Below, piece by piece: positions 17,071-50,619 of a stretch of 64,000 nucleotides of DNA (positions are counted from its first letter, which is position 1; the number at the start of each line of letters is the position of its first letter). This DNA comes from an archaeon (GTDB lineage Archaea > Nanobdellota > Nanobdellia > Pacearchaeales > GW2011-AR1), in the NCBI GenBank assembly GCA_018697035.1, contig JABHSE010000004.1:259300-323299 (forward strand), given 5' to 3'. The position numbers and the translations under genes are program-made. The notes under the pieces are model-generated. The model had not been told where the DNA came from. It made no database searches and saw only the letters and a list, made by a program, of their open reading frames with translations.

Positions 17071-17116
17071 ACAAAAACAAAACTCTGAATAGCTTTATAA
17101 ATTTTTAGATAAGATG

Positions 17117-17250: not shown

Positions 17251-17291
17251 ACAAATACAAAACCTCTAGAAGCTTTATAAATTTTTAGATA

Positions 17292-17795
17292 TCATTTCCC
17301 AGCCCGCAAAACAATCCGCTTAATCGCCTTCATCCCCTCAGCACTAAACTCCGAAACAACAACCCCGAATAAAACCTCGTCCTCATCCTCCGCATGTTTC
17401 CTCAAAACATCAACAAACACCCTCATATCCTTAACCAAAGCCTCACGAACCCTCGCATCACTACCCGAATTAATAGCATCACCAATCTTCTTGACATGCC
17501 CCCTCAAATCCCTATGCTCAAGAAAAATCGTCTCAATCGGAATCGCAAAACCCTCAGCCTTCATCACCTCAAAAAGCTCCTCCTCCATCTTCTCATGCGC
17601 GGTCCAAAGCTCACCAACCTTCCAAAAAGTGTGCACTAAGTTAGAATAATTAATATTGCCGACCTCGTCCACTTCAGTGGATGCCATCTGGGCAGAAGGC
17701 ACACCCTTGGGTACCTCCTTCATAATAAAATCTAACTCTGACAATTCCATCTCGATAGCCTTATGTTCATCTCTCAATATCTTAACCGGATTCAT
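17292..17795 (-). CDS. hemerythrin-like (HHE cation-binding) domain protein carrying an in-frame repeat insertion
   Basis: RDEHKAIE, HEKMEEELF, LEHRDLRGH and HAEDEDEVLF are hemerythrin-like His/Glu motifs. Confidence 0.65.
   Translation of the reverse strand: MNPVKILRDEHKAIEMELSELDFIMKEVPKGVPSAQMASTEVDEVGNINYSNLVHTFWKVGELWTAHEKMEEELFEVMKAEGFAIPIETIFLEHRDLRGHVKKIGDAINSGSDARVREALVKDMRVFVDVLRKHAEDEDEVLFGVVVSEFSAEGMKAIKRIVLRAGK
17658..17716 (-). repeat. in-frame ~57-nt repeat element, copy H (encodes PKGVPSAQMASTEVDEVG)
   Basis: About 49 of 57 nt match 33093-33149 by hand alignment. Confidence 0.7.
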
Positions 17796-22366: not shown

Positions 22367-22414
22367 AATAAACAAAATAACCAGGAAATTATAAACCTAT
22401 CCCAAACAGTAAAC

Positions 22415-22441
22415 CTTAAAAACAATGTTACCACTACAAAA
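22415..22441. repeat. 27-nt motif CTTAAAAACAATGTTACCACTACAAAA (partner at 34265-34291)
   Basis: 24 of 27 nt are identical to 34265-34291. Both lie at the left edge of an SD-led island and upstream of a minus-strand promoter. Confidence 0.55.
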
Positions 22442-22661
22442 TGCAACATTAATACAACGACATACCAAAAACAGAACCACAGATAACAATTCAAAGAAAT
22501 TTGAATTAAGTAATCCTCAAAGAAATATGTCAAAAAGAAAGGAAATACCTATTGTACCAAGGAGAAATATCTCAAAATAGGCCATTTCAAAAGAAGATAA
22601 AATAGATTCATCTATGTCTATGATAAATATATAATAATAAAATTTAACAATAGGAGGAAAT

Positions 22662-22937
22662 ATGTCCATAATGAACGTAGCAATAGTCCTCATAGAGGCC
22701 GCCATCTTGGCATTCCTAACAGAAAGAGGAATAACGTTATTCCAAAATAACATTACTCCTGAAACAAAAAAACTCAGGATAGTCCAACAGCTCTATACTT
22801 TGGACCCATCAGAACCTCGAAAGATGGAGTTAAGGAAATACACCCGCAAACTAAAAGATTACAAATACACCCTTGCCCTATTACTCACAATAGTAATAAT
22901 AACAATAGGGATAACAGTTTACGCTATAACCAGTTAA
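22662..22937 (+). CDS. island 1: small two-TM membrane protein
   Basis: SD TAGGAGG 6 nt before the ATG. Hydrophobic N- and C-terminal segments. Confidence 0.55.
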   Translation: MSIMNVAIVLIEAAILAFLTERGITLFQNNITPETKKLRIVQQLYTLDPSEPRKMELRKYTRKLKDYKYTLALLLTIVIITIGITVYAITS

Positions 22938-23022
22938 AGGAGGTGCCTGACAAAAACACTGTACAACCGTACAAAACCGTACAACAAAACATTAATTTAT
23001 CTTAAAAGAAAAGGAGTACAAC

Positions 23023-23424
23023 ATGAACTTTATCATCGAATTTTTCATCAGCATAGGTTTCATCGCAAGAACAAAACCGATCATGATCGATTCAAAATTG
23101 GCCGGATTAGCAAAACTCCAAAGGGAACTGAGTGAAGCGAATAGAATCAACGCCAGACTTGCTGCAGACAAAATGAGAGAGGAAGAACGAGCTGAGAAAG
23201 CAGCGAAAAAGGCAGCGGAAAAAGAAGCAGCCGAACTCAAAGCCAAAATTGAAGCTCTTGAAAAAGAAAGCAAGGCAAAACAGGATAGTCTTGAGGCAGG
23301 TCGTAACACAGAAAGACGTAATGCCGCCAAGTTCATTACAACTGCAAAAGAAGAAGCGGAAAAGGCAAGTATTATATCTGGGAACCTTGTTGCCATCACT
23401 ACCAAACGCATCGCAACAAAATAA
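23023..23424 (+). CDS. island 1: membrane-anchored coiled-coil protein
   Basis: SD AAGGAG, an N-terminal hydrophobic segment, then an A/E/K-rich helix. Confidence 0.55.
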   Translation: MNFIIEFFISIGFIARTKPIMIDSKLAGLAKLQRELSEANRINARLAADKMREEERAEKAAKKAAEKEAAELKAKIEALEKESKAKQDSLEAGRNTERRNAAKFITTAKEEAEKASIISGNLVAITTKRIATK

Positions 23425-23498
23425 CCCCTGCCGGAGCAGCCATATCTTAGACAAACAAGATCCCTGGCTGCCTTAATCTTAACCGGGAGGTAATTATT

Positions 23499-23654
23499 AT
23501 GTCAACATGCAAAAAAAACTGCCGACGCACACAAAACTGCCCGAAAAAATGCCGGCCAGTTTGCGTAAAGAAATTCAGAACAGAGAAAATCTCTCAGAAA
23601 AAGAAAAGACAAAGCATGAGAGCATTTTTGAAAAAAATTACAACAAACCCATAA
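23499..23654 (+). CDS. island 1: 51-aa Cys-rich basic peptide (not in the ORF track)
   Basis: SD GGGAGG 9 nt upstream. My translation: MSTCKKNCRRTQNCPKKCRPVCVKKF... Confidence 0.35.
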   Translation: MSTCKKNCRRTQNCPKKCRPVCVKKFRTEKISQKKKRQSMRAFLKKITTNP

Positions 23655-23667
23655 GAAAGGAAACATT

Positions 23668-24303
23668 ATGAATTTCGAAAGAAAAATCGAAAGCATATTT
23701 GATCAGGTAGAAGCCATTTGGCCCATGATTAAGGCAATGATCGAATCTGGACAACTCACCGAAGAAGCGGTCACAGAACTTCTTGACGGACCCTATGAAG
23801 AATTGGTTGCCACATACCGGCCCCTGCTTCCCATCCTTCCCATGATCATCTCCAAACTCGTCATGGAATTCCAACCCATGGTCCTTCCCGTAAGAAAACT
23901 CAAATTCCAACTCCAGTCGAATCCGGCATGGAAGAAAATGCAGAGTGACAACTACACTCTTAAAGCTGAAACCCGCAAGGAAATCTTTGCCGCTTATATG
24001 AGTAAGGATTTCACAAGGGAAGAAGCCTGGGCAATGATGATGGAAGATACCACACCCGTCAAACCGGCTCAAGCCTCCAATGGAAATGCATTCCTTAAAG
24101 GATACAAAGCCGCTGCCGAATCTTCCAAAGAAATCTTGGGCGATAAAAAGAAAATGGCTGCCCTCACAGAACTCCTGGATAGCGTTAAAGAAATGATAAA
24201 AGAAGTCAAAAAAACCCAGGAAAAACCGGAAACTCAACCCGTCACTTTCCCAGAACGGGAAGATGATGAGCTTGAAAAAACTGATCCTGATCAGGAAGAA
24301 TAG
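23668..24303 (+). CDS. island 1: hypothetical protein
   Basis: 211-aa ORF with the RBS context GAAAGGAAACATTATG, which is shared with 24392. Confidence 0.55.
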   Translation: MNFERKIESIFDQVEAIWPMIKAMIESGQLTEEAVTELLDGPYEELVATYRPLLPILPMIISKLVMEFQPMVLPVRKLKFQLQSNPAWKKMQSDNYTLKAETRKEIFAAYMSKDFTREEAWAMMMEDTTPVKPAQASNGNAFLKGYKAAAESSKEILGDKKKMAALTELLDSVKEMIKEVKKTQEKPETQPVTFPEREDDELEKTDPDQEE

Positions 24304-24391
24304 GTAAAACTACCAAACTTGGAGCATGGCTAACAATAGCATCGCTCCAAGCCAAAACCATAAACAACAAACAACCAGGAAAGGAAACATT

Positions 24392-24661
24392 ATGAAAATC
24401 ATGATTGTAGGACCAACCGGAACAGTCATCCCAGTATACCTCGAAGAAGGCTGTGAAAATTGCCCAAAACGGGAACTCTGTCTTTTTCAATCTCTTGCAG
24501 AAGAAGCCATGGAACTTATGGAAATCCTGGAACTTATGGTAAAAGAAATCAGGGGAAATTCCTTGAGTAGTAGCACCTCAAAGTGTAACACCTGCTGGAT
24601 AAAAGGCAAATGTCTTATGGAATCTCAGGTAAGAGAGGCCGACAGAAGCACCATCCATTAG
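24392..24661 (+). CDS. island 1: small Cys-containing hypothetical protein
   Basis: The internal ATG with GAAAGGAAACATTATG is preferred over the track start at 24326. CENC..C and CNTC..C motifs. Confidence 0.45.
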   Translation: MKIMIVGPTGTVIPVYLEEGCENCPKRELCLFQSLAEEAMELMEILELMVKEIRGNSLSSSTSKCNTCWIKGKCLMESQVREADRSTIH

Positions 24662-24675
24662 CCCCTGATTCCATC

Positions 24676-24714
24676 CCGCGCGCAGCAACTTCCCAACATT
24701 CCCGCTGCGCGCGG
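24676..24714. terminator. GC-only 11-bp inverted repeat CCGCGCGCAGC-N17-GCTGCGCGCGG
   Basis: Read directly. It begins 15 nt after the stop of 24392-24661. No T-run follows, so a terminator role is uncertain. Confidence 0.4.
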
Positions 24715-24788
24715 ACCAACTAAAAAAATAAAGGAATTTAAATTCCTAGACATAAAAAAATTTCTTAAAACAAAAAGGAGAAAATTTC

Positions 24789-25409
24789 ATGGAATTCAAA
24801 ATCAAGAGCACGAGAAAAGATATCATCTGGGGAGACAAAGTCTTCGAAAGCGATATCACAAGACAAGCCCAGGAACTAATTAACACCAATGGATTCGCAG
24901 GAACATACATCAGGCATCTCAGCACAGGCAGATCAGAAACAGAAAGCATTAACCTTGCCCTCCTCTGTCTAGCAGAAGAAAACCAAAAAATTGTGGGAAC
25001 AAGCCTCAATCTTCTCATGAAGGATGAATTTTGCAAAAGAGTCCTTCCCCGTTTACCTATGGGAAGAATTCTCTACGAAATGCTCAAGGCACCACACATA
25101 TTCAACATATCAAGCGAAATCATCGAGACAGTGGAATTCCCAAAAAAATATATCGGTGTAGATACATGGAGCAACGGGTTATTCGGTTGGAGATACAGAG
25201 AAGAGAAACACGTGGTGAAAACAAATGAGAAGATTACAAAGATCGGCAGCGAAATTTTGATAGAACTCCAACCAGATTTCGTAGCCAACTTAGGATCTAT
25301 AAACATTAGATACGGACCCTTCAATATCGAGAACATAAGAAGAATGGTAGATAATGGACGAACACCTACGCCTTTCTGGAAAGAACTTTTCAAACACATC
25401 TTCTATTAA
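24789..25409 (+). CDS. island 1: hypothetical protein
   Basis: 206-aa ORF with SD AAAGGAG ~9 nt upstream. No family recognised. Confidence 0.55.
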   Translation: MEFKIKSTRKDIIWGDKVFESDITRQAQELINTNGFAGTYIRHLSTGRSETESINLALLCLAEENQKIVGTSLNLLMKDEFCKRVLPRLPMGRILYEMLKAPHIFNISSEIIETVEFPKKYIGVDTWSNGLFGWRYREEKHVVKTNEKITKIGSEILIELQPDFVANLGSINIRYGPFNIENIRRMVDNGRTPTPFWKELFKHIFY

Positions 25410-25602: not shown

Positions 25603-25638
25603 GATGGCGCACAATGTATCCAATACATATGCGCCATC
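25603..25638 (+). terminator. hairpin GATGGCGCA...TGCGCCATC preceding the T9 run
   Basis: A 9-bp GC-rich stem plus inner pairing, followed by the T-run at 25656-25664. Confidence 0.5.
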
Positions 25639-25655
25639 CAAAACTCTCCAATATC

Positions 25656-25710
25656 TTTTTTTTTGGCCAAACATAGGTATTCCAATATACTATATTACAC
25701 TATATACATC
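25656..25710 (+). repeat. conserved T-run/AT-rich module, copy 1 of 4
   Basis: TTTTTTTTTGGCCAAACATAGGTATTCCAATATACTATATTACACTATATACATC aligns with 35582-35636, 46823-46876 and 47244-47300. Confidence 0.7.
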
Positions 25711-26115: not shown

Positions 26116-26742
26116 CTAATCCAATGTCTCCAAACTCTTCACAAAAATTTCCTTCTCCAAATCCTCTCTCAACAACTGATAATCACTCCCAATAATCTCA
26201 CCCTTTCTTCCAACAATATCAACATACTCTAATTCAGAAGTAGTCCGAGCCTTAACCAATATCAACAAAAACGAATGCAACTTCCGACTCCCGACCCCTA
26301 ACTTCTGACTCCCAACCTTAGTAACATGCTCCAACGTCACAGAACAAACCTTCTCAAACTCACACCTAACTCCAAACTTCTTCCCAATTCTCTTCACAGC
26401 ATCCTCAAACCCCTCTCCCTGAATCATCCTCCCAGCCGGGAGCGACAACTTACTAAAGAACGGCCTCTTCTTCCTATCAATCAAAAAAACCCTTCCATCC
26501 CTCTCAATCGCAACCAAAACAACCGGCATCACAAAACGCTTATCCGAAACATAGGGAATCTCCTTCTCTCCCTCTTCCGTCAAAATATACTCATCACTAT
26601 CCTTCATTAAAATTCCCTCGCTCACCAGCTTCCCCAAATGATAACTAAGCTTATTCGACCGAACTCCAACCCCCCGCTCTATCTCACTAAACCGCAGCCT
26701 ACTCTCACACAGAAAACATTCCAAAATCTTATCCTTCATCAA
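26116..26742 (-). CDS. ArsR-like wHTH fused to a degenerate Nudix domain (putative ligand-sensing regulator)
   Basis: N-terminal LRFSEIERGVGVRSNKLSYHLGKLVSEGIL is a wHTH. The Nudix-like box PAGRMIQGEGFEDAVKRIGKKFGV lacks the RExxEE glutamates. Confidence 0.55.
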   Translation of the reverse strand: MMKDKILECFLCESRLRFSEIERGVGVRSNKLSYHLGKLVSEGILMKDSDEYILTEEGEKEIPYVSDKRFVMPVVLVAIERDGRVFLIDRKKRPFFSKLSLPAGRMIQGEGFEDAVKRIGKKFGVRCEFEKVCSVTLEHVTKVGSQKLGVGSRKLHSFLLILVKARTTSELEYVDIVGRKGEIIGSDYQLLREDLEKEIFVKSLETLD

Positions 26743-27358: not shown

Positions 27359-27941
27359 TCATGCTCTCAAGCTTCTTGATATTCAAAGCCTTCCCATCAT
27401 CTCTCTTTGTACGAGCAATGTCAGTAAAATACTCGTGCCCACAAATAAAGTCCAATTGAAACTTCAAAAAACCCAAACCATATGGAAGCCCAAGCTCTTT
27501 CCGAAGCAACTCTCCTTTATCAAAAAAACATTCTCGCCCCAAGTTATCCAAATCGCAATCACACATCAGCTCTCCCAAATAATTACCAGGATTCTGAGGC
27601 ATAACAGTCGCCATAATAATATCACAACACATCTCAACCCTCTCACTAGAATATCCCAATCCAGGCAAATACCCTCTCATAAATTCCGCAGTCCGAATCT
27701 CGTTATTAGTCCTACCAGGAATCACAATATGATCATGAATCAAAGCCCCACTCTCCAAACAAAATCGCTCCTCATAAGACAACCCCAGCTCAACCGCGTA
27801 ACCACGAGCAGCCGAAAAAGCCTCAAACTCATGCTCAAAGTTATGGTAACAAAGTTTCGGAGCACTCCCCATCCCAAGCTCAACAAGATTCCCAAGTCTA
27901 ACCATATCATCCCTCGCAATCAAATTCTGTTTCGCTTTCAT
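27339..27941 (-). CDS. HD-domain phosphohydrolase
   Basis: HNFEHEFEAF .. GALIHDH (H..HD) motifs. Confidence 0.65.
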   Translation of the reverse strand: MKAKQNLIARDDMVRLGNLVELGMGSAPKLCYHNFEHEFEAFSAARGYAVELGLSYEERFCLESGALIHDHIVIPGRTNNEIRTAEFMRGYLPGLGYSSERVEMCCDIIMATVMPQNPGNYLGELMCDCDLDNLGRECFFDKGELLRKELGLPYGLGFLKFQLDFICGHEYFTDIARTKRDDGKALNIKKLESMIRNFGE

Positions 27942-28033
27942 ACTATATCAATAATATCTATATACAAGAAACATCTCATAGAAAATTACAGATTAAACGC
28001 AAGATTTATAAAATAAATAAGATTTATCCTAGC

Positions 28034-29026
28034 ATGAAATGTCTAGAGAATAAAAATACCAAAGAAATAATTTTAGACATCAAAGATAAAAAAATCCTCT
28101 CAGTCATTTCACAAAATGCAAGAATGCCACTAACTAGGGTCGCAAAAAAAGTAGCCCTCTCAAGAGATTCCATAAACTACAGAATCAAGAACTACGAAAA
28201 ACAAAGACTCATTAAAGGATACCGAACCATAATCAACATCGCCCACTTCGGCTACGACAACTACCATCTCTTTATAAAACTAAACAATCCCTCACCAGAA
28301 CTAGAAAAAAAAATCATCGACAAACTAATCCAAAAACCATTTATAAGAGCCGTCCTAAAATTTAGCGGAAAGTTCGATCTGGAAATAGCAATAGTAGCAA
28401 ACAGTATCTTAAACCTTGACAAGATACTAGATGAGATAAACAACAGCAGCGAGCAAAACATCCTCGATTACGAATTATTAGCAATATCAAAAACATTCAC
28501 AACAAAATCCTTACCAATGAATCAATCCAAACACGAAAAATCCAACAAGACGAAAATAAAAAAGATAGACAAAAAGGATATCCAAATATTAAACTTACTA
28601 AGTAAAAACGCGAAACTTCCCATCTTTGAATTAGCCGAGAAACTAAAACTCTCAACGGACGCAATCATCTACAGGATAAAAAAATTAAAAGAATCAGGCA
28701 CAATAATAAAATTCATCCCAGTGATAAACTTCGATGCTCTCGGATACAACCTCCACGTCGTCCTTCTAAACACAAATATCTCCAAAGAAAAAGATGAGAA
28801 AAATCTATCCAACTTTTTATCAAAAAATGAAAACACTCTATGGGCAGTAAAGGCAATCGGGAAATTCAACGTCATAATTTATCTACTAACAAAAAACGCA
28901 GGAGAACTTCAAAAAACCTTACTAGACTTAAGGAAATTCCTCCCAGGACGACTAAATAAACAAGAACTCCTAATCGCCCATGAACAATTTAAATATGATT
29001 ATTTCCCAGAAGAATTAATAAAATAA
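28034..29026 (+). CDS. tandem Lrp/AsnC-family transcriptional regulator (two HTH-plus-RAM-like modules)
   Basis: DIKDKKILSVISQNARMPLTRVAKKVALSRDSINYRIKN recurs as DKKDIQILNLLSKNAKLPIFELAEKLKLSTDAIIYRIKK. Confidence 0.75.
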   Translation: MKCLENKNTKEIILDIKDKKILSVISQNARMPLTRVAKKVALSRDSINYRIKNYEKQRLIKGYRTIINIAHFGYDNYHLFIKLNNPSPELEKKIIDKLIQKPFIRAVLKFSGKFDLEIAIVANSILNLDKILDEINNSSEQNILDYELLAISKTFTTKSLPMNQSKHEKSNKTKIKKIDKKDIQILNLLSKNAKLPIFELAEKLKLSTDAIIYRIKKLKESGTIIKFIPVINFDALGYNLHVVLLNTNISKEKDEKNLSNFLSKNENTLWAVKAIGKFNVIIYLLTKNAGELQKTLLDLRKFLPGRLNKQELLIAHEQFKYDYFPEELIK

Positions 29027-29095
29027 TTTACCTTAAACTACAAACCCTCCTAAGACTCGTAATTCTAAAATTCACAATGATGATAATTCTTCATA

Positions 29096-32422: not shown

Positions 32423-34210
32423 TTACTTCTTAACCTTCTCAAACAAAAACTCAAAATATTCCCCACCAATCGAGCTCGCCATCCTTTCAACAATCAACTC
32501 CGGAGTAGAACTAGCCAATCTTCCTAAAACAGGATTATGATTCACAATCAAATTAAAATCTTCATCAAGCCCACTAGCCTCAATCCCATCCACACGAGCA
32601 CCCTTAGGCAAGTTTTTCGCAATCTCTGCTCCCAAATGCGTAGCCAAAATAATAAAACAACCTTTCCGAACAAAATATTCAGCAGTCGCACCAATAATCT
32701 TCCCAGCAACACCAGGCTCCGTCACAGCCTCAATCTCATCAGCCAGAATCAGCGTGTTATTCCCAGATTTAATCCCAGACATCTGCGTAAGCAATGTCTC
32801 AAACGCCCCCTTAGAAGTACTGCCTTTAGTCTTAGCAAAATAATAAACCTCATCAAAAACCGGACACTCAAAAATACTCCCAACAACTGGCAATCCCATA
32901 CGAAACAACGAAACATTCTGCAACATATGCTCCAGCAAAGTAGTTTTCCCCCCTGAATTAGCCCCAGTCAAAATCGAACACCGAGCCTCATCGTCCAAAA
33001 CAAAACTAACCGGTTGAGCATCACGCAAAAACAGATTCAACCCATCTTCCAACAATAAGCTAGTACCATCTTTAGGCATAGTCATATCTTTACCGACCTT
33101 GTCCGTATCAGCGGATGCCATCTGGGCAGGAGGTACACCCTTGGGTGCCAAACCATCAACATACTTCGCAACCCCATTACAAAAGTCCTCGACAACTATC
33201 TCCGCCTCCAACCTCTGCAAAATCTTCGGTATACCTCTCAATTTCGAAGCATTCCGCTTAATCCTCTCCGCCACATCACTAAACTCATTAGCACTAGCAA
33301 TCCGAATCTGCGCCTCCAATTCCTTATAATCAACAGAAACAGGAACACCTAAATTAAAAATATGCTCCGGTACACCACTCCTCTCAATAGCCTCCCGAAC
33401 TAAAACCAAAATCTCGTCACTCATCTTCCCCTCACCAAGCATCTTCAGCATAACCTCACCTGAAATCATCATACCCTTAATTCCCTCACCAACCTCCTCA
33501 TTAATATCCTCAAGCGCAGCCTCGACCTCGCCCTCCGTTATAATCTTCCCCTCCTTATTCTCAAGCAATGCAAACGGCTCAATCAACAAATCCAAAACCT
33601 CTCGAAGCTCACAAGAAACATCCGCTCCATTAAGCAAAGCAAAATTCTCCCGCCAACCACTTAAGCTCTCCAAAAATCTCTCAAGATAAACATCCTCGAC
33701 GCTATTCAAAAAAACACTCTGCGGCAACCTTTCAAGCATTCCCCGAAAATCATCGCAATCGACAACCTGCACAACATCATATCGTTCCAACTCTGCAACA
33801 TCATTCTGACTAGTCAATAAAACGACTCCACAACTCAATTTATTTAATCTAACAAACGTAGACTCATCCTCAGTTACAACCACAACATCATATCGCGGCT
33901 TCCAACTAGCCCTCGGCTTACTCAATCTTCCCAACACGTCTCCCAATTCCCAATTCCCGACTCCCAACTTCTTAAAAAATTCTTGCCTCGCATAAACTTC
34001 TTTAAGAGAACTATCAATCCCAAAACAATTCCAGACATTTGAACTCTCCGAAAAAACAAACCCACCAGACAACTTTGCCAAAACCTTCCGATGGACAGCC
34101 TTAGCGTCTTTAGTTCGATAAATACTCCCAACCTTCCCGACACTACTCTTCCCAAGACTAAACGGACTCAAACTGTTCTCCGAAACAAACTTAACAAGCT
34201 CTCTTCTCAT
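32423..34210 (-). CDS. MutS-family ATPase (MutS domain V, MutS2-like, no Smr domain seen) carrying an in-frame repeat insertion
   Basis: TGANSGGKTTLLE Walker A and LILADEIEAVTEP Walker B. The start is moved to the ATG at 34210, 20 nt after the promoter element. The track ORF reads through that promoter. Confidence 0.7.
   Translation of the reverse strand: MRRELVKFVSENSLSPFSLGKSSVGKVGSIYRTKDAKAVHRKVLAKLSGGFVFSESSNVWNCFGIDSSLKEVYARQEFFKKLGVGNWELGDVLGRLSKPRASWKPRYDVVVVTEDESTFVRLNKLSCGVVLLTSQNDVAELERYDVVQVVDCDDFRGMLERLPQSVFLNSVEDVYLERFLESLSGWRENFALLNGADVSCELREVLDLLIEPFALLENKEGKIITEGEVEAALEDINEEVGEGIKGMMISGEVMLKMLGEGKMSDEILVLVREAIERSGVPEHIFNLGVPVSVDYKELEAQIRIASANEFSDVAERIKRNASKLRGIPKILQRLEAEIVVEDFCNGVAKYVDGLAPKGVPPAQMASADTDKVGKDMTMPKDGTSLLLEDGLNLFLRDAQPVSFVLDDEARCSILTGANSGGKTTLLEHMLQNVSLFRMGLPVVGSIFECPVFDEVYYFAKTKGSTSKGAFETLLTQMSGIKSGNNTLILADEIEAVTEPGVAGKIIGATAEYFVRKGCFIILATHLGAEIAKNLPKGARVDGIEASGLDEDFNLIVNHNPVLGRLASSTPELIVERMASSIGGEYFEFLFEKVKK
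33093..33149 (-). repeat. in-frame ~57-nt repeat element, copy M (encodes PKGVPPAQMASADTDKVG)
   Basis: See 17658-17716. Same orientation and reading frame. Confidence 0.7.
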
Positions 34211-34230: not shown

Positions 34231-34253
34231 CCTTATAAGAATTATTGCACTCC
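34231..34253 (-). promoter_or_regulatory. TATA box plus conserved upstream element (copy 3 of 3)
   Basis: The reverse strand reads GGAGTGCAATAATTCTTATAAGG. Confidence 0.55.
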
Positions 34254-34264
34254 AAACCAACAAT

Positions 34265-34291
34265 CTTAAAAACAATTTTACCACTGTAAAA
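34265..34291. repeat. 27-nt motif CTTAAAAACAATTTTACCACTGTAAAA (partner at 22415-22441)
   Basis: 24 of 27 nt identical. Weaker similarity (CAAC.ACATAC..AAAACA) continues for ~40 nt. Confidence 0.55.
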
Positions 34292-34449
34292 CCATACAAA
34301 CAACTCCACAACACATACAGAAAACACAATATACATACAGAAATACCTAGAAATCCGTGGAAAACCAGAAATATCCAGAAAAAGAAATAGACTCGTCTCT
34401 GGTAATCCTCAAAATATTTTACAAAACCATTAATCTAAAAGGGGAAATC

Positions 34450-34914
34450 ATGAACTGGCTAAAAAACCAAGCAAAGAAGCTCTTTGGAAAAACAAAACCT
34501 GAAGAAAAAACACCTGAAGAAAAAAACCAACCAGAAAAAGAATTCGAGGAAATTCTAAACACCTTGTTAAAACTAAACATCCTCATCCGAAAAGACCCTC
34601 AACTTGAAGATGAAGTAATGAAAGAAATTGAAGAAACAATCGACAACCTCCAAATTGTAATTCCGAGTATGATGGAAAGGTATCCAGGAGAAACACTGAC
34701 TTACGAACTCAAAAAAATAGGTCAAAACCACCTCTACAAAATCGTCAAAGAATACCTCGACCTCTCCTCAACAAGTCGCAAACAACAAGCCGAGATGTTC
34801 AAAAACAAGATAGCCTCTCTCTACAACGTCGCAAAAAGATCCAAAGATATCATAGAAAACAACGAGGTAGCAGAATTCAAAACCATGGCAAATTTCTTAT
34901 CAACCAAATTTTAA
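34450..34914 (+). CDS. island 2: hypothetical helical protein
   Basis: The internal ATG preceded by AAAGGGG (SD) is preferred over the track start at 34357. Confidence 0.5.
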   Translation: MNWLKNQAKKLFGKTKPEEKTPEEKNQPEKEFEEILNTLLKLNILIRKDPQLEDEVMKEIEETIDNLQIVIPSMMERYPGETLTYELKKIGQNHLYKIVKEYLDLSSTSRKQQAEMFKNKIASLYNVAKRSKDIIENNEVAEFKTMANFLSTKF

Positions 34915-34938
34915 TTCAATCAATCAGGGAGAACAATT

Positions 34939-35100
34939 ATGGAAAACACAGGTGACAAAGACGAGCAACAAAACACACAAGACACAGATAAAAGTGATCA
35001 AGAAAGATGGCGGAGGATAAAACGACCATCAGATTCAGATGAATTTTACTGGTGGAAAGGAGAGCAATATCCAGTTGATCATAAAGGAAGAGTCTGGTAA
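34939..35100 (+). CDS. island 2: 53-aa acidic/Trp-rich peptide (not in the ORF track)
   Basis: SD AGGGAG upstream. My translation: MENTGDKDEQQNTQDTDKSDQERWRRIKRPSDSDEFYWWKGEQYPVDHKGRVW. Confidence 0.35.
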   Translation: MENTGDKDEQQNTQDTDKSDQERWRRIKRPSDSDEFYWWKGEQYPVDHKGRVW

Positions 35101-35162
35101 CAATCCAAAAAACAAACCAACAATCAAAAACAGACTCTCTAAAAATTCAAGGAGGAAGCAAA

Positions 35163-35504
35163 ATGTTTATACCAGATATCATGATAGACATTCTGAATTT
35201 CTATTCAGAATGGACAATAAAAAGCGCAGTATTAAGTCCAATAATTTCCATATTATTATTAATGATAATCATATGGAAATTAAAAATGACAACGGAGAGT
35301 ACTCAAATAATAGGAGCACTCCTACTCTTTACCATATCGCTCCCAATAGGGTTCATGGTAGGATTAATAATAGAAGTATTCTTTTTCCCATATGATCCAC
35401 CAAACGCAGGAGGAATCTTGGGATTGAATATAGCACCCCTATTTTGCCTCCTTGAGATAATGGACGAAAGCACTAGAGAACAACCACTAAAAACCTACTC
35501 ATAA
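35163..35504 (+). CDS. island 2: small three-TM membrane protein
   Basis: SD AAGGAGG 7 nt upstream. Preferred over the overlapping frame 35039-35395. Confidence 0.55.
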   Translation: MFIPDIMIDILNFYSEWTIKSAVLSPIISILLLMIIIWKLKMTTESTQIIGALLLFTISLPIGFMVGLIIEVFFFPYDPPNAGGILGLNIAPLFCLLEIMDESTREQPLKTYS

Positions 35505-35539
35505 ACCATCAAACTTCTTAAAAGATTTAATGCTTAAAA

Positions 35540-35581
35540 GATTGACAAAGCCTCTAGTTCATTAGAACCACTTTGTCAATC
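35540..35581 (+). terminator. hairpin GATTGACAAAG-N20-CTTTGTCAATC followed by T10
   Basis: An 11-bp stem, extendable by AAAA/TTTT, immediately followed by the T-run at 35582-35591. Confidence 0.6.
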
Positions 35582-35636
35582 TTTTTTTTTTCGCCAAAAC
35601 CTATATACTCCAATATGCTACATTAAACAACACACA
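35582..35636 (+). repeat. conserved T-run/AT-rich module, copy 2 of 4
   Basis: TTTTTTTTTTCGCCAAAACCTATATACTCCAATATGCTACATTAAACAACACACA. Confidence 0.7.
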
Positions 35637-35675
35637 TTAAAATCAAAAAAATTTCATAAAATCATATATTCCAAT

Positions 35676-37091
35676 CTATCTCCGAGCAACCCTATTCCGA
35701 GTATTCCTACCACCACCCCGAAACCCATCCTTAGACCCCCGAGCCGGCCTTCTACCATCACTACTCCCTCTATCTCGCCTAACACTTCTCTGCCCACCAG
35801 AACTAGCCCTTCCCCTACTTCCAACATTAGGACTCCGATCATTCCTAGGTCCTCTACTTCTCATTGGTCCCCGACCACCACTACTAGGTCTACCACGTCC
35901 CGAACTCCGACCTCCGAATCTAGAACCTCTTGTATCCTCAAGCATCTCAATCCTAACCCTCTCAAACCGCGGCGTCTCTGTCCTCTTAACCTCAAGTCCC
36001 TCATTCCGCCTCAACACATTCGAAAAATTATCATAATCCCTAGAAGCGACAATATTAACAGCCAACCCACTCTCTCCAGCCCTAGCAGTTCGCCCAATCC
36101 GATGAACATAATCCTTAGCGTCCTTCGGTAAATCATAATTATAAACATGGCTAACTCCCTTAATATCAAGCCCTCGAGCAGCAACATCAGTACAACAAAC
36201 AACACCAGCCATCCCTTCGCTAAACTCCTTCAAAACTCTAATCCGCTTCTTTTGATCCATTCCTCCATGAATCGCTCGAGCACTAACCTTATTCAACCTC
36301 AAATTCTTCTCAACAAAATCCGCATTCCTCCGAGTATTACAAAACACCATCGCAAGGCCATCGTGCTTCTGTTTCAACAAATGCACAAGCAAAGAAAACT
36401 TCTCCCCATCACGAACATCATAATAAATTTGCTTCAACTTAGAAGTATCAACATAATTCTCAACCGCAATCTCAATCGGAGCCTTCATATGCCTATCCGC
36501 AAAATCCGCCAAGTCCCCGCTAATCGTAGCCGAAAAAAGCAAAGTCTGCCTATTTTTAGGACATGCATCAACAATCTTAGAAACATCAAACTTAAATCCC
36601 ATATCCCACATCCGATCTGCCTCATCCAAAACCAAATAATCAACCTTACTCAAATCAACCATACGCTGTTTCAAATGATCTAACAATCTACCAGGCGTAG
36701 CAACAACAATATCCGCGTATACCAACTTCTTCTGCTGATGACTAATCGATACACCACCGTATACCGGCACAACTTCCAAATCTTTATAGTAAGCAAATTC
36801 CCTCAAAGCCTCAGCAACCTGCTCAGCCAACTCACGAGTCGGAGTTAAAATCAAACCCTGAATTCCCTTCCCCTTCTCGACATTCTTAATCATCCCAGAG
36901 CCAAAAGCCAACGTTTTCCCCGAACCAGTGGCAGAACCAGCGACGACATCCTTTCCTTCAAGAATCAACGGTATCGTTTTTTCCTGAATTTCTGAAGGCT
37001 TCGTAAACTTCTTATTCGAAATCACTTTCAAAACATGTTCACAAAGACCCAATTTTTCAAATTGTTCCATTCTAATCTTATAAATTTCCAA
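35676..37091 (-). CDS. DEAD-box ATP-dependent RNA helicase with an RG/S-rich C-terminal tail
   Basis: GSATGSGKT, PTRELA, DEAD, SAT and HRIGRTARAG motifs. The start could instead be the ATG at 37070 (MEQFEKLG). Confidence 0.9.
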   Translation of the reverse strand: MEIYKIRMEQFEKLGLCEHVLKVISNKKFTKPSEIQEKTIPLILEGKDVVAGSATGSGKTLAFGSGMIKNVEKGKGIQGLILTPTRELAEQVAEALREFAYYKDLEVVPVYGGVSISHQQKKLVYADIVVATPGRLLDHLKQRMVDLSKVDYLVLDEADRMWDMGFKFDVSKIVDACPKNRQTLLFSATISGDLADFADRHMKAPIEIAVENYVDTSKLKQIYYDVRDGEKFSLLVHLLKQKHDGLAMVFCNTRRNADFVEKNLRLNKVSARAIHGGMDQKKRIRVLKEFSEGMAGVVCCTDVAARGLDIKGVSHVYNYDLPKDAKDYVHRIGRTARAGESGLAVNIVASRDYDNFSNVLRRNEGLEVKRTETPRFERVRIEMLEDTRGSRFGGRSSGRGRPSSGGRGPMRSRGPRNDRSPNVGSRGRASSGGQRSVRRDRGSSDGRRPARGSKDGFRGGGRNTRNRVARR

Positions 37092-38384: not shown

Positions 38385-38423
38385 AGTAATAACATTTAAA
38401 AACAAAATCAGCCATATCAAATC

Positions 38424-40756: not shown

Positions 40757-40798
40757 CCAAACCAAATCTTTAAAAACAAAACTTTCACTTAACTTACC

Positions 40799-45389: not shown

Positions 45390-45614
45390 TATTCACAAAA
45401 AAACCGTACCAAAAGAAAACAAGAAATAACTAAAATTCATAACCTGAATTTTAAGAAACATAAAGAAACACGGAAAGGAAAGAAATATGTAAAGGAATAC
45501 GTGTTTAAAAATAAAAAAACCATAGAGGAAACTCTATTAACATATAGAAATACCATGTCGGTGTTTCAAATTATTCTAACAGCATCAAAAGATGCAAAAA
45601 AAGGACATTAATTT

Positions 45615-45767
45615 ATGCCAATTAGAGGAAATACCAGAATCTGTAAGTGTGGAAGGAAAAAATCTCTACAGTTCAAATATTGTAGTTTCTGCAAAAAAAA
45701 GAAGGAATCTTCTATTGAAAGAAAAACATACAGAAAAAGGAAAAGAATCAAAGAAAAATTTATGTAA
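45615..45767 (+). CDS. island 3: 50-aa basic CxC..CxxC peptide (not in the ORF track)
   Basis: My translation: MPIRGNTRICKCGRKKSLQFKYCSFCKKKKE... The RBS is weak. Confidence 0.25.
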   Translation: MPIRGNTRICKCGRKKSLQFKYCSFCKKKKESSIERKTYRKRKRIKEKFM

Positions 45768-45800
45768 TAATAATTAAAACCAATAGCAAGGGAGAACCAA

Positions 45801-46196
45801 ATGCAAAAAGAAAATGAAACACCCAAAATCGCCCTACTTGCAATGGGACTAGTATTCGCAATCTTCTCACCCCTCTGCGCCGGAAATTCTGAAATCACAA
45901 GAATTTTCGGAGTCCCAATAGTAGCATTCGGCATAGCGGGATACTCTTTTATGATCCTGAGCACCTTAGCAAGCACCATTGGACCAAAACCCACAACCTC
46001 AAAAACAATCTATTCAACCTTAGTCACAGGAGGATTCTTTTTCACTATCTTCCTGATCTACAGAAGCATCGAAAATGCTTTCCTATGTCCCCTATGTATG
46101 GGAGTATTAATGATCAACATAGTACTATTCGTCATGTTAATTTGGCCACTACCAACAACACAAAAACAAGCAAACAAATCAGCAACTCCTTCCTAA
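45801..46196 (+). CDS. island 3: VKOR-like (vitamin K epoxide reductase family) four-TM protein
   Basis: The loop Cys plus FGVPIVAFGIAGY and the TM CxxC (CPLCMGV) match VKOR hallmarks. SD AGGGAG upstream. Confidence 0.5.
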   Translation: MQKENETPKIALLAMGLVFAIFSPLCAGNSEITRIFGVPIVAFGIAGYSFMILSTLASTIGPKPTTSKTIYSTLVTGGFFFTIFLIYRSIENAFLCPLCMGVLMINIVLFVMLIWPLPTTQKQANKSATPS

Positions 46197-46288
46197 AAGA
46201 AGGTCTATATATCAACAAGTCCCAAAAAGGAGGCAGGGACAAACTCGCACTTAAACTTAAACTTAATTTTTAAAAAAAGGAAATTGTT

Positions 46289-46750
46289 ATGAAAAAAATT
46301 CTATCAATGATCGCCCTTATGATCCTCTTGGGAACAACCACAGTTCAAGCCCAAGAAAGAGGTAATTATCTCCAAAACGCCGGAGATTCCATCATTACTT
46401 CAGTCAAGGCAATACCTATTCAGGCACTCAACACTGACTATATTGCGGATGAGACAAAGGAACACGGATTTCCGGGAACAACAACAAGTGTTGCAAATAA
46501 CGCAACTCGACCAGTCATTAAACTGGCAAACGGAATATGGGATGCCCTGTCCAACCAAAACACCAGCGGCAACACGGAAGACATTGGAGCATTCAATGAA
46601 TTTGCAGAAAGCAGATTTATTGGATACCTAAAAAATGCAGTCGTATATGGAGGAATCGTATTGGTAACAGGCGGCACCGGAGTAGTAGCGATTATAGCAG
46701 CAACCGGTGGCTTCATGCACAGTATGGGAGTTAACCAAGAGAGACCATAA
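46289..46750 (+). CDS. island 3: secreted/membrane protein
   Basis: Signal peptide MKKILSMIALMILLGTTTVQA and a C-terminal Gly-rich hydrophobic segment. SD AAGGAAA upstream. Confidence 0.55.
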   Translation: MKKILSMIALMILLGTTTVQAQERGNYLQNAGDSIITSVKAIPIQALNTDYIADETKEHGFPGTTTSVANNATRPVIKLANGIWDALSNQNTSGNTEDIGAFNEFAESRFIGYLKNAVVYGGIVLVTGGTGVVAIIAATGGFMHSMGVNQERP

Positions 46751-46776
46751 CATGCTGCCATAAATAATTTTTAAAC

Positions 46777-46815
46777 TTGCTCGAGGCGCTGCGAATAAAA
46801 CGCCGCCTCGAGCAA
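46777..46815 (+). terminator. hairpin TTGCTCGAGGCG-N15-CGCCTCGAGCAA preceding T9
   Basis: A 12-bp GC-rich stem, with the T-run at 46823-46831. Confidence 0.6.
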
Positions 46816-46822
46816 TCCCCTC

Positions 46823-46876
46823 TTTTTTTTTCGCAAAACCTATATATTCCAATATACTATATTACAATATATATAT
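46823..46876 (+). repeat. conserved T-run/AT-rich module, copy 3 of 4
   Basis: TTTTTTTTTCGCAAAACCTATATATTCCAATATACTATATTACAATATATATAT. Confidence 0.7.
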
Positions 46877-46900
46877 TGCCTTTCTAGTTTGTATTAATAA

Positions 46901-46934
46901 ATGCCTCCTAGGCAAAAGGTATACCCTTGGGTGT
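46901..46934. repeat. decayed intergenic copy of the in-frame repeat element
   Basis: ATGCCTCCTAGGCAAAAGGTATACCCTTGGGTGT versus ATGCCATCTGGGCAGGAGGTACACCCTTGGGTGC (33115-33148). Confidence 0.5.
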
Positions 46935-46946
46935 AAACAACAACAA

Positions 46947-47228
46947 TCACGCAGCAGCATAAACCGCATGCGCCCGATTACTAATCCGCCATCTCATCCT
47001 AGCCAAATAATCCTCACCCTTAGAATTCTTAGAAACCCGCACAACCAACCCCTTTCCTTCCAACCCCAACAACAACCTCTTAACAAACTCCTCATCCCTA
47101 GCCAACTCCCTCGCAACATCAACCGTAAAAACCAACCTCGGAAAAACCGAAAACAAATAACTCAAAATCTGTTCCGATATCCTCTCTATCTTAACATCAC
47201 TAATCTTTGGCATCCATTCCCAAAACAA
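46947..47228 (-). CDS. small winged-helix DNA-binding protein
   Basis: FTVDVARELARDEEFVKRLLLGLEGKGLVVRV is wHTH-like. Module copies 3 and 4 bracket the gene. Confidence 0.55.
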   Translation of the reverse strand: MFWEWMPKISDVKIERISEQILSYLFSVFPRLVFTVDVARELARDEEFVKRLLLGLEGKGLVVRVSKNSKGEDYLARMRWRISNRAHAVYAAA

Positions 47229-47243
47229 ACTCCCTTTATATTC

Positions 47244-47300
47244 TTTTTTTTTCTATCTCAACCTATATACTACAATATACCATATTAAACAATATACATA
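47244..47300 (+). repeat. conserved T-run/AT-rich module, copy 4 of 4 (no preceding hairpin or island)
   Basis: TTTTTTTTTCTATCTCAACCTATATACTACAATATACCATATTAAACAATATACATA. Confidence 0.65.
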
Positions 47301-47396
47301 GCCAAGTCATGCGCCACACTCCTAACCCCGAACTCCAAACCAGAAAAAGCTCAGCTTTTTCTAAACATTTATATATAATAAACATCTGGCTACATC

Positions 47397-49799: not shown

Positions 49800-49863
49800 T
49801 TGTTGTCACTACTAAGATACAACAAATAGAAAACTTTATAAAGTCTAATACCCTACATTAATC

Positions 49864-50619
49864 ATGGCAAAAAAAGCAAAAGATACAAGAACTCCAGGTG
49901 AAAAAGAAGGTCACCAAAATCTATTATCAGCCGGATTAGGTTACTACAACATTTCACAAATAGGAGATACTTCAAACATAGTTGAACAAGCAAAGGGCTT
50001 AGAAAACTATGCAGCAATGCAAGGATTAGATCCAGAAGCAGATCTAAACGGTCTCCCAAGACAAGCAGGATTATTCGGACAACTTATCCCAGAAGAACAA
50101 AAAAGCGCAAGGGAAAAATTAATAAAAGCTACAGAGGCAAATTTCGCTTATGCTCTTAATGGATTGAACGGAGAAAAAGCTGTAGGATTAGCTGCAAAAT
50201 TAGGAATAACTAAAGAAGAATTAGAATTAGAAGGAAAATTATCTAACCCAGAAGCAACAATAGAAGACACAAAAAAAGCTTTCTCTGGAATATATGAACC
50301 AAGCTCTCTAGTTTCTCACTACATAGCTCTAAATCAAAATCCTGAAGAAATAAAACAGGCAGCATATGGAGCACTAAATAGAGCAGAAATGAGAAGGCGA
50401 GGAGAATTCGTATATGCAGTAAAAGATAAAGCAACAGGAAAACCAATAATGAGATACGAAGGCGCAAAAGCAAAAGCATACATAACAGAAAACATAGAAA
50501 AAGCTCCAGAGCAAATAGCAACCGATGTAAAAATGGGAATAGGCTCACACCTAGCCTCAATAGTAGTTGCAAGAGAAATGCAAAAAGCCCAGAAAGCCGC
50601 TGAAGCTCAAAGCGAATAA
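49864..50619 (+). CDS. hypothetical protein (A/E/K-rich)
   Basis: 251-aa ORF with TATA box ACTTTATAAAG ~23 nt upstream. Confidence 0.55.
   Translation: MAKKAKDTRTPGEKEGHQNLLSAGLGYYNISQIGDTSNIVEQAKGLENYAAMQGLDPEADLNGLPRQAGLFGQLIPEEQKSAREKLIKATEANFAYALNGLNGEKAVGLAAKLGITKEELELEGKLSNPEATIEDTKKAFSGIYEPSSLVSHYIALNQNPEEIKQAAYGALNRAEMRRRGEFVYAVKDKATGKPIMRYEGAKAKAYITENIEKAPEQIATDVKMGIGSHLASIVVAREMQKAQKAAEAQSE

Follow-up and report, generated by a model that had tools for sequence, protein, structure and literature searches.

Island 2 of a Pacearchaeota-like archaeon, a probable member of a family of accessory transcription units with common ends and differing cargo

Introduction

Why would two blocks of unrelated genes in one archaeal genome share both their left and their right ends? 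The question is raised by a 64-kb stretch of contig JABHSE010000004.1 ("the window" denotes this whole stretch), in which a block of plus-strand genes lying between a MutS-like gene and a DEAD-box helicase gene, here called island 2, starts with a motif of 27 nucleotides (nt), the 27-mer, and finishes with a module, both of which recur at the ends of a second block, island 1. An earlier note on this DNA had proposed that the two blocks are related inserted elements. We compared the locus with its counterparts in related genomes, and conclude that island 2 probably belongs to a lineage-specific family, found in Pacearchaeota-like archaea, of accessory transcription units that are self-contained. 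Judged from their sequence, the shared ends are expression signals (promoter and leader on the left, terminator and orphan promoter on the right) and not demonstrated recombination ends.

DPANN archaea are host-dependent organisms with very small genomes and, to our knowledge, the ways in which they gain and express accessory genes are poorly understood. The window codes for the archaeal markers L35Ae, L10e, TruD, archaeal-type GluRS and HerA, and homologues of its MutS-like protein carry the labels Pacearchaeota, Nanoarchaeota or "archaeon". The organism is a DPANN archaeon, and its promoters are not to be read by bacterial rules. For comparison we fetched the neighbourhoods of MutS-like orthologues (69-79% identity) from eight other genomes (L049, L050, L051, L053, L058, L059, L060 and L061; labels from L049 to L061 stand for loci of related genomes). 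A scan of a genome collection with a strict module pattern gave one locus, and a metagenome scan with the MutS-like protein as query gave five.

Presence and absence of island 2 in relatives

The features of island 2 and its borders are:

34232..34239, minus strand: TATA box CTTATAAG of the MutS-like gene, whose start is 29 nt ahead of the ATG (34210); part of the host and not of the cassette
34253..35675, plus strand: island 2, the DNA that relatives lack between the end of the helicase gene and the promoter of the MutS-like gene; left edge at 34253-34259
34265..34291, plus strand: 27-mer CTTAAAAACAATTTTACCACTGTAAAA, consisting of a TATA box CTTAAAAA (34265-34272) and a conserved spacer (TGTTACYACT core in relatives)
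34292..34449, plus strand: 5' leader of about 158 nt, A/C-rich, with repeated (C/T)AGAAAT; layout homologous to seven other leaders
34450..34914, plus strand: open reading frame (ORF) 1, 154 amino acids (aa), predicted four-helix protein, apparently of bacterial origin
34939..35100, plus strand: ORF2, 53 aa, led by a Shine-Dalgarno (SD) sequence, no known relatives
35163..35504, plus strand: ORF3, 113 aa, hydrophobic (membrane-like), SD-led, with a partial left-end copy upstream
35536..35591, plus strand: putative terminator (A4, 11-bp stem, 20-nt loop, return arm, T10)
35592..35637, plus strand: module copy 2, CGCCAAAACCTATATACTCCAATATGCTACATTAAACAACACACAT, with a TATA-like CCTATATA at 35600-35607 (nhmmer E = 2.6e-9)
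35676..37091, minus strand: DEAD-box helicase gene (Pfam DEAD and Helicase_C), the convergent host gene to the right of the cassette

Those of island 1 are:

22415..22661, plus strand: left end, with the 27-mer at 22415-22441 followed by a leader homologous to that of L051
22662..25709, plus strand: region holding the cargo, six SD-led ORFs (22662-25409)
25654..25709, plus strand: module copy 1 at the end of the island, with a hairpin near 25606-25636 and a T9 run at 25656-25664

Both host genes that border island 2 are conserved: orthologues of the helicase are 72-84% identical in all relatives, and the promoter of the MutS-like gene is kept at -22 to -44 in L049, L050, L051 and L053, empty sites included. 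The gap between the two genes measures 48 nt in L049 and L050, 61 nt in L058 and 103 nt in L053, compared to 1465 nt in the window, where the inserted DNA amounts to about 1.42 kb. In L049, L050 and L058 the gap holds nothing but the conserved MutS promoter, and the extra 55 nt of L053 are an inverted copy of part of it. Opposite-strand ORFs with a leader and a module occupy the same junction in L051 (5.9 kb), L059 (9.3 kb) and L061 (1.9 kb), and L060 carries an unrelated 1.3-kb insert there. Among the window and its eight relatives, four sites are therefore empty or near-empty and five occupied, the presence/absence pattern of a genomic island. Occupied and empty taxa are interleaved on a neighbour-joining tree of MutS. 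The comparison of junctions places the insert with precision, since it starts directly past the stop codon of the helicase gene and ends directly at the upstream edge of the MutS promoter.

In L053 (9624-9726), the 55-nt insert pairs as an inverted repeat with the B recognition element (BRE) segment of the MutS promoter (GAATTATTGTGCTCC ... GGAGTACTCTACAATAATTC). This inverted duplication may be the scar of an excision or of a rearrangement at a hotspot.

At the site of island 1, the neighbour that abuts the cpGTPase gene is a co-oriented gene of 217-240 aa in L050, L051 and L060, and an HTH_20-SIMPL pair in L049, L058, L059 and L061; the window carries island 1 instead. The proposal of related inserted elements with unrelated cargo thus survives in substance: both islands are accessory insertions at places where two co-oriented core genes abut in relatives, and six more such units exist in L051, L059 and L061. 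Their ends, on the other hand, do not resemble those of transposons or integrated elements. All eight units, from four genomes, have the same order of parts (TATA box and 27-mer, leader, SD-led ORFs, hairpin with a T7-T10 run, module) around different cargo. L059 has units in tandem, with a module-to-leader junction.

The left end

The match between the 27-mers at 34265-34291 and 22415-22441 (24 of 27 positions) was reproduced exactly. Allowing up to 3 mismatches, the 64-kb window contains no third site, and from 100 shuffles none is expected. In mononucleotide shuffles of the two intergenic regions, however, the best 27-nt window averaged 19 identities and reached 22 (60 trials), so that the pair taken alone is only moderately significant. 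The motif is established as real by six further copies in the relatives. Similarity of the left blocks extends over 40 nt (22402-22441 and 34252-34291, 80%), and the consensus of the eight copies is CTTAAAAAnAATGTTACyACTnnAAAATGyA, with an almost invariant TGTTACYACT spacer.

The nature of the motif is suggested by the host promoters. In a survey of the 60 nt upstream of 25 window genes, a YTTAWAWA box (up to 1 mismatch) begins exactly 29 nt 5' of the ATG in 19 genes and at -30 in two more (for instance at 38395-38402, 40769-40776 and 47368-47375). With a TATA box at such a rigid position, the core genes are presumably mostly leaderless; SD-led starts are exceptional in the window and mark the island genes. 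A box YTTAAAAAC is likewise conserved 29 nt 5' of a leaderless nucleotidyltransferase gene in the window, L049, L050 and L051. The CTTAAAAA at 34265 and at 22415 has no mismatch to the genome consensus YTTAWAWA, as expected of an archaeal core-promoter TATA box. The 27-mer is thus most likely the plus-strand core promoter of the cassette itself, with predicted transcription starts near 34292-34295 in island 2 and 22443-22445 in island 1, and the spacer between TATA box and start probably doubles as an operator. Unrelated promoters of the window can show long mutual similarity, such as 72% over 58 nt between 1173-1230 and 49818-49875.

Two other explanations of the left-end similarity deserve consideration. 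The 27-mer sits 19-25 nt beyond minus-strand TATA boxes and regulators can be shared by divergent promoters, which is in line with the alternative raised in the earlier note, that of an upstream activator or operator site for the divergent cpGTPase and MutS-like genes. Yet the MutS-like promoters of L049, L050, L053 and L058 and the cpGTPase promoters of L049, L050 and L051 keep their TATA/BRE region without it. At empty sites the stop codon of the preceding gene lies only 6-15 nt beyond the promoter, and the absence of the 27-mer upstream of these orthologues argues that it is not a site of the divergent genes. Furthermore, its distance to the minus-strand TATA box varies from 18 to 34 nt among copies, the L059B copy has no adjoining divergent gene at all, and eight out of eight copies head a plus-strand cassette with SD-led genes, where a host promoter element would also occur with no cassette beside it. 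We consider this explanation very improbable. Chance or low-complexity resemblance within an A/C-rich, G-poor strand is scarcely credible: the strand bias is indeed strong (GC skew of about 0 to -0.6), shuffled intergenic pairs do reach 22 identities out of 27, and the p value of a shared 12-mer in both leaders is only about 0.03, but shuffles of the window predict no 27-mer match, eight leaders and about 18 modules are recovered at E = 1e-8 to 1e-15 in constant order and orientation, and matches in viral contigs have flanks of merely random identity.

The minus strand of the 27-mer reads TTACAGTGGTAA, which presumably has some likeness to the origin recognition box (ORB) of archaeal replication origins. 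Such origins have inverted ORB pairs around an AT-rich unwinding element beside orc1/cdc6, and a switch in skew polarity. We rejected this reading: the copies are solitary and scattered and have the same orientation, the scanned ORFs of the window include no Orc1/Cdc6 domain, and cumulative GC skew is monotonic over the window, so that neither an origin nor a terminus lies inside it. The plus strand is G-poor throughout the window, with a GC skew of about -0.4 to -0.6 over minus-strand genes and mostly negative values even over plus-strand genes.

We made two further observations on the left end. A partial copy of it, CAAACCAACAATCAAAAA, lies in the spacer between ORF2 and ORF3 (35113-35130) and matches the left edge CAAACCAACAATCTTAAA (34253-34270) at 16 of 18 positions (89%); it may be that two earlier units fused into island 2, or that this is what is left of an internal promoter of ORF3. 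In addition, five of the eight leaders (window 22440-22451, L051, L059B, L059C and L061b) carry an ATG at the place of a leaderless gene start, 25-26 nt beyond the first base of the TATA box. These early ATGs open tiny ORFs (MQH*, M*, MYQ*, one of 8 codons and, once, 33 codons) and could be vestiges of a leaderless gene start or minimal upstream ORFs.

The leader

Within the leaders of the two islands we distinguish:

34305..34309, plus strand: 5' arm of stem P1, TCCAC, pairing with 34357-34361
34357..34361, plus strand: 3' arm of P1, GTGGA; the equivalents in island 1 are GACAT and ATGTC
34389..34398, plus strand: palindrome AGACTCGTCT, at a position conserved across leaders
22459-22464 and 22526-22531: P1 of island 1, GACATA with TATGTC
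22488-22495 and 22500-22507: hairpin P2 of island 1, AATTCAAA with TTTGAATT
22604-22613: palindrome of island 1, AGATTCATCT

From the predicted start to the first SD-led ATG the leaders measure 160-290 nt, and their motifs come in a common order. Those of island 1 and L051, which are at different sites, are homologous over 215 nt (nhmmer E = 3e-6), and the nearest relative of the island 2 leader is L061a, from the same site. With a hidden Markov model (HMM) of the leader we recovered, from L051, L059 and L061, the insert ends next to the MutS gene and, from L059 and L061, further units (E = 2e-15 to 1e-3 overall, with L059 and L061 copies at 2e-15 to 2e-10), and a covariance model built from five leaders recovers the three others (E = 0.008-0.014), including island 2 (E = 0.008) and the third unit of L059.

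The 5' arm of P1 lies 40-46 nt from the TATA start and the 3' arm follows 50-70 nt beyond. The stem is 97% paired over the eight leaders and, in an alignment fitted to the model, three of its five pairs have changed on both sides. We observed a covariation score of 0.20, against 0.083 in shuffles, a value that none of 500 shuffles reached, and RNAalifold predicts P1 independently. Between the arms of P1, at a constant distance, P2 forms a perfect hairpin of 5-8 bp in five of seven leaders tested, with four different sequences (AATTCAAA/TTTGAATT, ATTTCGA/TCGAAAT, GTTTC/GAAAC and ATTCC/GGAAT), the longer of which are matched by few or no shuffles. From this pattern of pairing the leader is likely a structured RNA. 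Neither of the two window leaders, nor the whole of island 2, matched Rfam 15 at E up to 1, and at gathering thresholds the whole window gave only a tRNA; the leader is thus a candidate regulatory RNA outside Rfam families, and we know of few regulatory RNAs in any DPANN group.

Other motifs of the leader are the repeated (C/T)AGAAAT, a GAAATACCT box and the short palindrome AGACnnGTCT, whose changes are symmetric: besides the form given above for island 1, it occurs as AGACGAGTCT in L059B, AGACTTGTCT in L059C and L061a, AGACGCGTCT in L059A and AGATACATCT in L061b. Its 2-nt centre is too short for the loop of an RNA hairpin, so the palindrome, like the TATA-proximal spacer, looks more likely to be a DNA operator. 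Of the similarities noted earlier downstream of the 27-mer, the weaker one (CAAC.ACATAC) holds and corresponds to the 5' arm region of the conserved stem. The 12-mer (G)TAATCCTCAAA is indeed present in both leaders (at about 22510 and 34403), yet as evidence of relatedness it is weak: 29 of 1000 shuffles share a 12-mer, and the two copies are at non-equivalent leader positions.

The right end

The 11-bp hairpin and T10 run described earlier behind ORF3 are both there. The arms of the stem are GATTGACAAAG (35540-35550) and CTTTGTCAATC (35571-35581), the T10 run occupies 35582-35591 and, if the flanking A4/T4 are counted, the stem is of 15 bp and 100% complementary. A G+C-containing hairpin followed by a T-run is the sequence geometry of an intrinsic-type terminator. 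Every cassette closes with such a hairpin and T7-T10, often with an A-run opposite, and the hairpin differs in sequence from cassette to cassette, those that precede modules being unrelated.

The right-end module shared by islands 1 and 2 was borne out too, though the window has four plus-strand copies (25654-25709, 35582-35637, 46821-46876 and 47244-47299) rather than two. The two additional ones are:

46821..46876, plus strand: module copy 3, behind the hairpin and T-run of a VKOR-p153 unit and facing the 3' end of a gene for an 85-aa protein; syntenic with L050 3370-3418
47244..47299, plus strand: module copy 4, between the 85-aa gene (minus strand, ATG at 47213) and the PEP synthase/PPDK gene (ATG at 47397); no cassette attached

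The consensus of the module is a T-run followed by CGCAAAACCTATATACTCCAATATACTATATTAAACAATATACAT, and at the end of units it spans about 45 nt. Its CCTATATA has one mismatch to YTTAWAWA, and its 20-nt spacer is identical at 16 of 20 positions to the spacer between TATA box and ATG of a real leaderless promoter (gene at 49864). This geometry and the spacer match lead us to read the module as a duplicate core promoter of the leaderless type that no ORF follows. On the same sequence evidence, we favour a role as a boundary bound by initiation factors or as an outward promoter, behind a terminator of the bidirectional type.

The module closes eight out of eight leader-bearing units and is absent from the same junctions when these are empty. 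In L051, L059 and L061 the module HMM detects a copy at the end of the insert next to the helicase gene, oriented as in the window (E = 9e-10 to 9e-8). Upstream of PEP synthase/PPDK a module is conserved in the window, L050, L058 and L052 (a tandem pair in L052), with flanks that are not conserved. The 85-aa protein encoded between modules 3 and 4 (46959-47213) was considered as a candidate for a regulator that binds the module. It has no sequence match in Pfam or PDB, and its single-sequence model is of low confidence (predicted local distance difference test score, pLDDT, of 58); we refrained from calling it a winged-helix regulator.

Module 3 may end a third unit of the window, which we put forward tentatively:

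45390..46820, plus strand: possible third unit, directly after the HerA stop, with a leader-like segment (45399-45478), a 49-aa Cys-rich ORF (45615-45764), VKOR (45801-46196), p153 (46289-46750) and a hairpin with a T-run

Here p153 is a secreted protein of 153 aa and module 3 follows it; in L049, the module comes directly after HerA. The match of the leader-like segment to the covariance model is borderline (22 bits, E = 0.3), and its layout, CCGT..AAATTCA/TGAATTT..ACGG, has a P1-like CCGT/ACGG around a hairpin.

Cargo

The three SD-led ORFs reported for island 2 are confirmed, with the SD sequences GGGG, GGGAG and AGGAGG 6-9 nt upstream of the starts at 34450, 34939 and 35163. ORF1 has 307 homologues, the best of them outside its own species being 55-65% identical. 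Those that are named are all bacterial, mostly from Desulfobacterales (Desulfobacula, Desulfotignum), and in bacteria they adjoin TelA, DUF350 and a spermine-synthase-like gene in a conserved cluster. The Desulfobacterales proteins have an N-terminal hydrophobic segment (consensus MTMII..IFLIAVIGF) that the archaeal copy does not. The bacterial affinity, the conserved bacterial cluster and the archaeal copy without the N-terminal segment indicate a cross-domain transfer, its direction being from bacterium to archaeon as far as can be read from these sequences. The model of ORF1 (pLDDT 77) is a four-helix bundle with no significant PDB match. The database call of archaeal ORF1 begins at the GTG at 34357, inside the leader, and is probably too long.

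Across units the cargo consists mostly of small membrane or signal-peptide proteins, unrelated from one unit to another except for one membrane-protein family common to L051 and L059B. In island 1, only one homologue (46% identity) was found for a 206-aa protein, in an unrelated setting with neither leader nor module; for a 211-aa protein there are just remote relatives, about 140 aa long, of which the sole named one is from a bacterium of the candidate phyla radiation. PHROGs and PADLOC gave nothing credible in the cargo. A viral or plasmid origin was dismissed: exact-pattern scans of IMG/VR gave 31 matches to the 27-mer core and 3 to the module core, at the level of chance only, with about 25% identity in the flanks. 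We also dropped recent import as judged by composition, given that island 1 differed in 1-kb windows and yet was within the plus-strand range gene by gene.

Signs of mobility and known systems

No tyrosine or serine recombinase and no transposase domain was detected by Pfam among some 75 ORFs of the window, nor in the Pfam lists of the relatives' loci. Neither strand of islands 1 and 2 contains a candidate for the attC pattern RYYYAAC, 40-130 nt, GTTRRRY. Between 34200 and 35700 (seed 7), no end-to-end inverted pair is better than 11/14 and there is no flanking direct repeat. Comparing the junctions with empty sites revealed no clear target duplication, no tRNA adjoins the islands, and the window has no integrase.

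Integron cassettes and clusters of attC sites lacking integron-integrases (CALINs) have been reported in archaea, where attC sites of Nanoarchaeota are reported to be common to Desulfobacterota as well (Ghaly et al., 2022, PMC9668308). The units described here resemble them in being small units of ORFs mostly in one orientation, with unrelated cargo and an element at the 3' end, and also in their tandem arrangement (L059), their small membrane-protein cargo and a gene derived from Desulfobacterales. They differ in having no attC pattern but perfect-stem terminators with a T-run, and no IntI in the window. Moreover, integron cassettes are generally promoterless, whereas each unit here has its own TATA box and long leader, and integron arrays lie beside attI, whereas these units are single at several chromosomal junctions. 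With no attC pattern in either island and no IntI in the window, and with what look like promoters of their own, they do not fit the definition of integron cassettes or CALINs.

Insertion sequences such as IS200/IS605 and miniature inverted-repeat transposable elements (MITEs) are similar to the units in their intergenic position, single orientation, location on the lagging-type (C-rich) strand, subterminal hairpins and outward promoter-like end. Unlike them, the units have no transposase, inverted repeats or target duplications, and vary in length and content. Besides, the hairpins cannot be a common recognition site, because their sequence differs between copies. We therefore discarded an insertion sequence or MITE, for which inverted repeats, target duplications, a transposase or near-identical copies would be expected.

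Three other kinds of system are comparable. Hotspot islands between conserved core genes are a concept from the bacterial literature. As in such hotspots, the junction is empty in some relatives and otherwise filled in others, part of the cargo is horizontal, and the flanking core genes could supply homology; the units differ in being of 1.4-6 kb, in having no integrase, tRNA target, flanking repeat or compositional deviation, and in that every one of them has the same promoter-leader and terminator-module. Reused or "mobile" promoters are homologous promoter regions found upstream of non-homologous genes. Here too the same promoter and 5' region head unrelated genes, in this genome and in its relatives, and the module is a promoter copy with no ORF, but the units have in addition a probably structured leader of 160-290 nt, a fixed 3' element and presence/absence variation of the whole unit. 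With leader-RNA regulons they share a conserved 5' leader, with stems that apparently covary, a fixed order of motifs and diverse coding regions; unlike them, they have no Rfam match, a cargo with no common function and no evidence of masked ribosome-binding sites, and some of their motifs are operator-like in DNA. In sum, the units depart from integrons in their defining traits and combine features of hotspot islands, reused promoters and leader-RNA regulons. We found no description of this combination of features in a literature search.

Discussion

We propose that the units work as follows. On the strand opposite to the neighbouring core genes, and at a small set of recurring intergenic positions, a core promoter on the plus strand (the TATA box of the 27-mer, spacer and start region) would drive a transcript that begins with a leader of 160-290 nt bearing P1, usually P2, the AGAAAT repeats and the palindrome. 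One to about ten SD-led ORFs, differing by unit, would follow, their expression being set by a dedicated regulator, by the fold of the leader RNA, or by both. The hairpin with T7-T10 would halt the transcript and, as it is often of a bidirectional kind, separate the unit from the convergent host gene. Finally the 45-nt module, a promoter copy lacking an ORF, would bind the initiation machinery and then either give an outward transcript or serve as a boundary. With no recombinase or recombination site visible, we think that the cargo turns over by homologous recombination, with the flanking core genes or the conserved ends as the matching sequence, more probably than by autonomous transposition.

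Several points weigh against this proposal. The start site, the terminator and the activity of the module all rest on consensus geometry. The covariation of P1 comes from only eight sequences, all its double changes derive from two of them and the alignment was fitted to the model, while P2 is missing in island 2 itself and in L061a. Masking of the ribosome-binding site by the leader (through an anti-SD CCUC within TAATCCTCAAA) had to be given up, because in none of the eight units is the SD sequence less unpaired than in shuffled leaders; a simple translational switch is hence unsupported. Modules also stand in conserved places with no cassette and after ordinary operons (HerA in L049, a methyltransferase in L050), and are therefore possibly a general signal of unit boundaries rather than part of the cassette. 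An outward promoter on the helicase side would only produce antisense RNA into the 3' end of the helicase gene, for which we see no obvious use. The GC content and skews of island genes are within the range of other plus-strand genes, so recent import is not demonstrable by composition. Lastly, a tree of the single MutS gene cannot separate repeated gain from repeated loss.

Two rival accounts of the family bear on this choice. The units might not be mobile at all, and represent old paralogous operons regulated by a leader, inherited vertically with repeated loss, with cargo that diverged or was replaced piecemeal and with ends that are the promoter and leader of a regulon and a standard unit-end signal. 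This would suit the fact that island 2 and L061a share a junction and a leader subtype without P2 although their genomes are the most distant pair sampled, that island 1, L059C and L061b lie in one neighbourhood (between the cpGTPase operon and a 47-aa gene), that L051 and L059B have a cargo family in common at the same site, and that composition is host-like and modules end ordinary operons too. It is at odds with the unrelated cargo of the window and L061 at the same site, with an ORF1 that has no archaeal relative closer than the bacterial ones, with the occurrence of two leader subtypes at one site and with the at least three precise deletions, each sparing the MutS promoter, that it demands. 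We find it unlikely. Conversely, the units might be true mobile cassettes, integron-like but with no attC, whose leader start and module are recombination sites for a recombinase encoded elsewhere, in the genome, a virus or a plasmid. That the same two ends enclose unrelated cargo at two or three sites, that empty sites are precise, that L059 has a module-to-leader junction and that a partial left end stands ahead of ORF3 all speak for it, as does the reuse of one junction by more than one leader subtype (L051 and L059B occupy the MutS site and are less similar to island 2 than to island 1, which is at the cpGTPase site). The cross-domain ORF1 from Desulfobacterales also fits, archaeal integrons sharing attC sites with Desulfobacterota (PMC9668308). 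However, the roughly 75 ORFs contain no recombinase or transposase domain and the islands no RYYYAAC..GTTRRRY pair, the ends show no common core, inverted repeats or clear target duplication, the hairpins are perfect-stem terminators of unrelated sequence, promoter geometry accounts for both end elements, and modules occur in conserved synteny away from cassettes. Such mobility is unlikely in our view.

A bolder version, which we rate as distinctly unlikely, makes the leader start and the module the recombination or docking sites of an undescribed archaeal cassette-capture system, an analogue of integrons in which cassettes bring their own promoter, leader RNA and terminator. If true, a trans-acting enzyme or an exchange guided by homology would move cassettes among a few landing sites and could take up bacterial genes, and the leader RNA itself might have a share in targeting or regulation.

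If island 2 is instead, as we think, one of a family of self-contained transcription units, small membrane and secreted-protein genes and at least one bacterial gene would be housed in standard "expression cartridges" at recurrent junctions, a concrete picture of how accessory genes turn over. The rigid distance between TATA box and ATG, together with a detached promoter-like module, would also make it possible to predict promoters, start codons and the limits of units straight from the sequence of these uncultured organisms.

Other features of the window

Not all window-specific DNA belongs to the family. Between the 47-aa gene and NUDIX, the window has a 208-aa helix-turn-helix (HTH) protein of its own and, between NUDIX and the GTPase, a 231-aa ORF and a 330-aa double AsnC-type HTH protein (neighbourhood 26116-26742 and 27359-29095). 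In L051 almost nothing separates these core genes, which also holds for NUDIX and the GTPase in L061. The inserts have neither leader nor module.

ARAGORN places a tRNA-Tyr at 16999-17071 on the minus strand; the Rfam tRNA model was silent at its gathering threshold. Intergenic direct repeats occur at 17062-17118 and 17242-17298 (82% identical), upstream of tRNA-Tyr and of a hemerythrin-like gene, and at 61407-61456 and 61866-61915 (ATCCGTGAGAATCC(A/G)TGCAATCCGTGAA, 82% identical), adjoining genes for PD-(D/E)XK and NYN nucleases.

A 60-nt segment is present in frame in the hemerythrin-like gene (17656-17715) and in the MutS-like gene (33090-33149), with 85% identity, and encodes (V/A)PKGVP(S/P)AQMAS..D.VG in both proteins. 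It has no nucleotide match in the loci fetched from eight relatives, the MutS-like gene included, and the hemerythrin-like and MutS-like proteins of the window are about 18 aa longer than their orthologues. A degenerate third copy lies at 46876-46935, directly 3' of module 3. The segment resembles a mini-insertion, in frame and specific to this species, that has made copies of itself.

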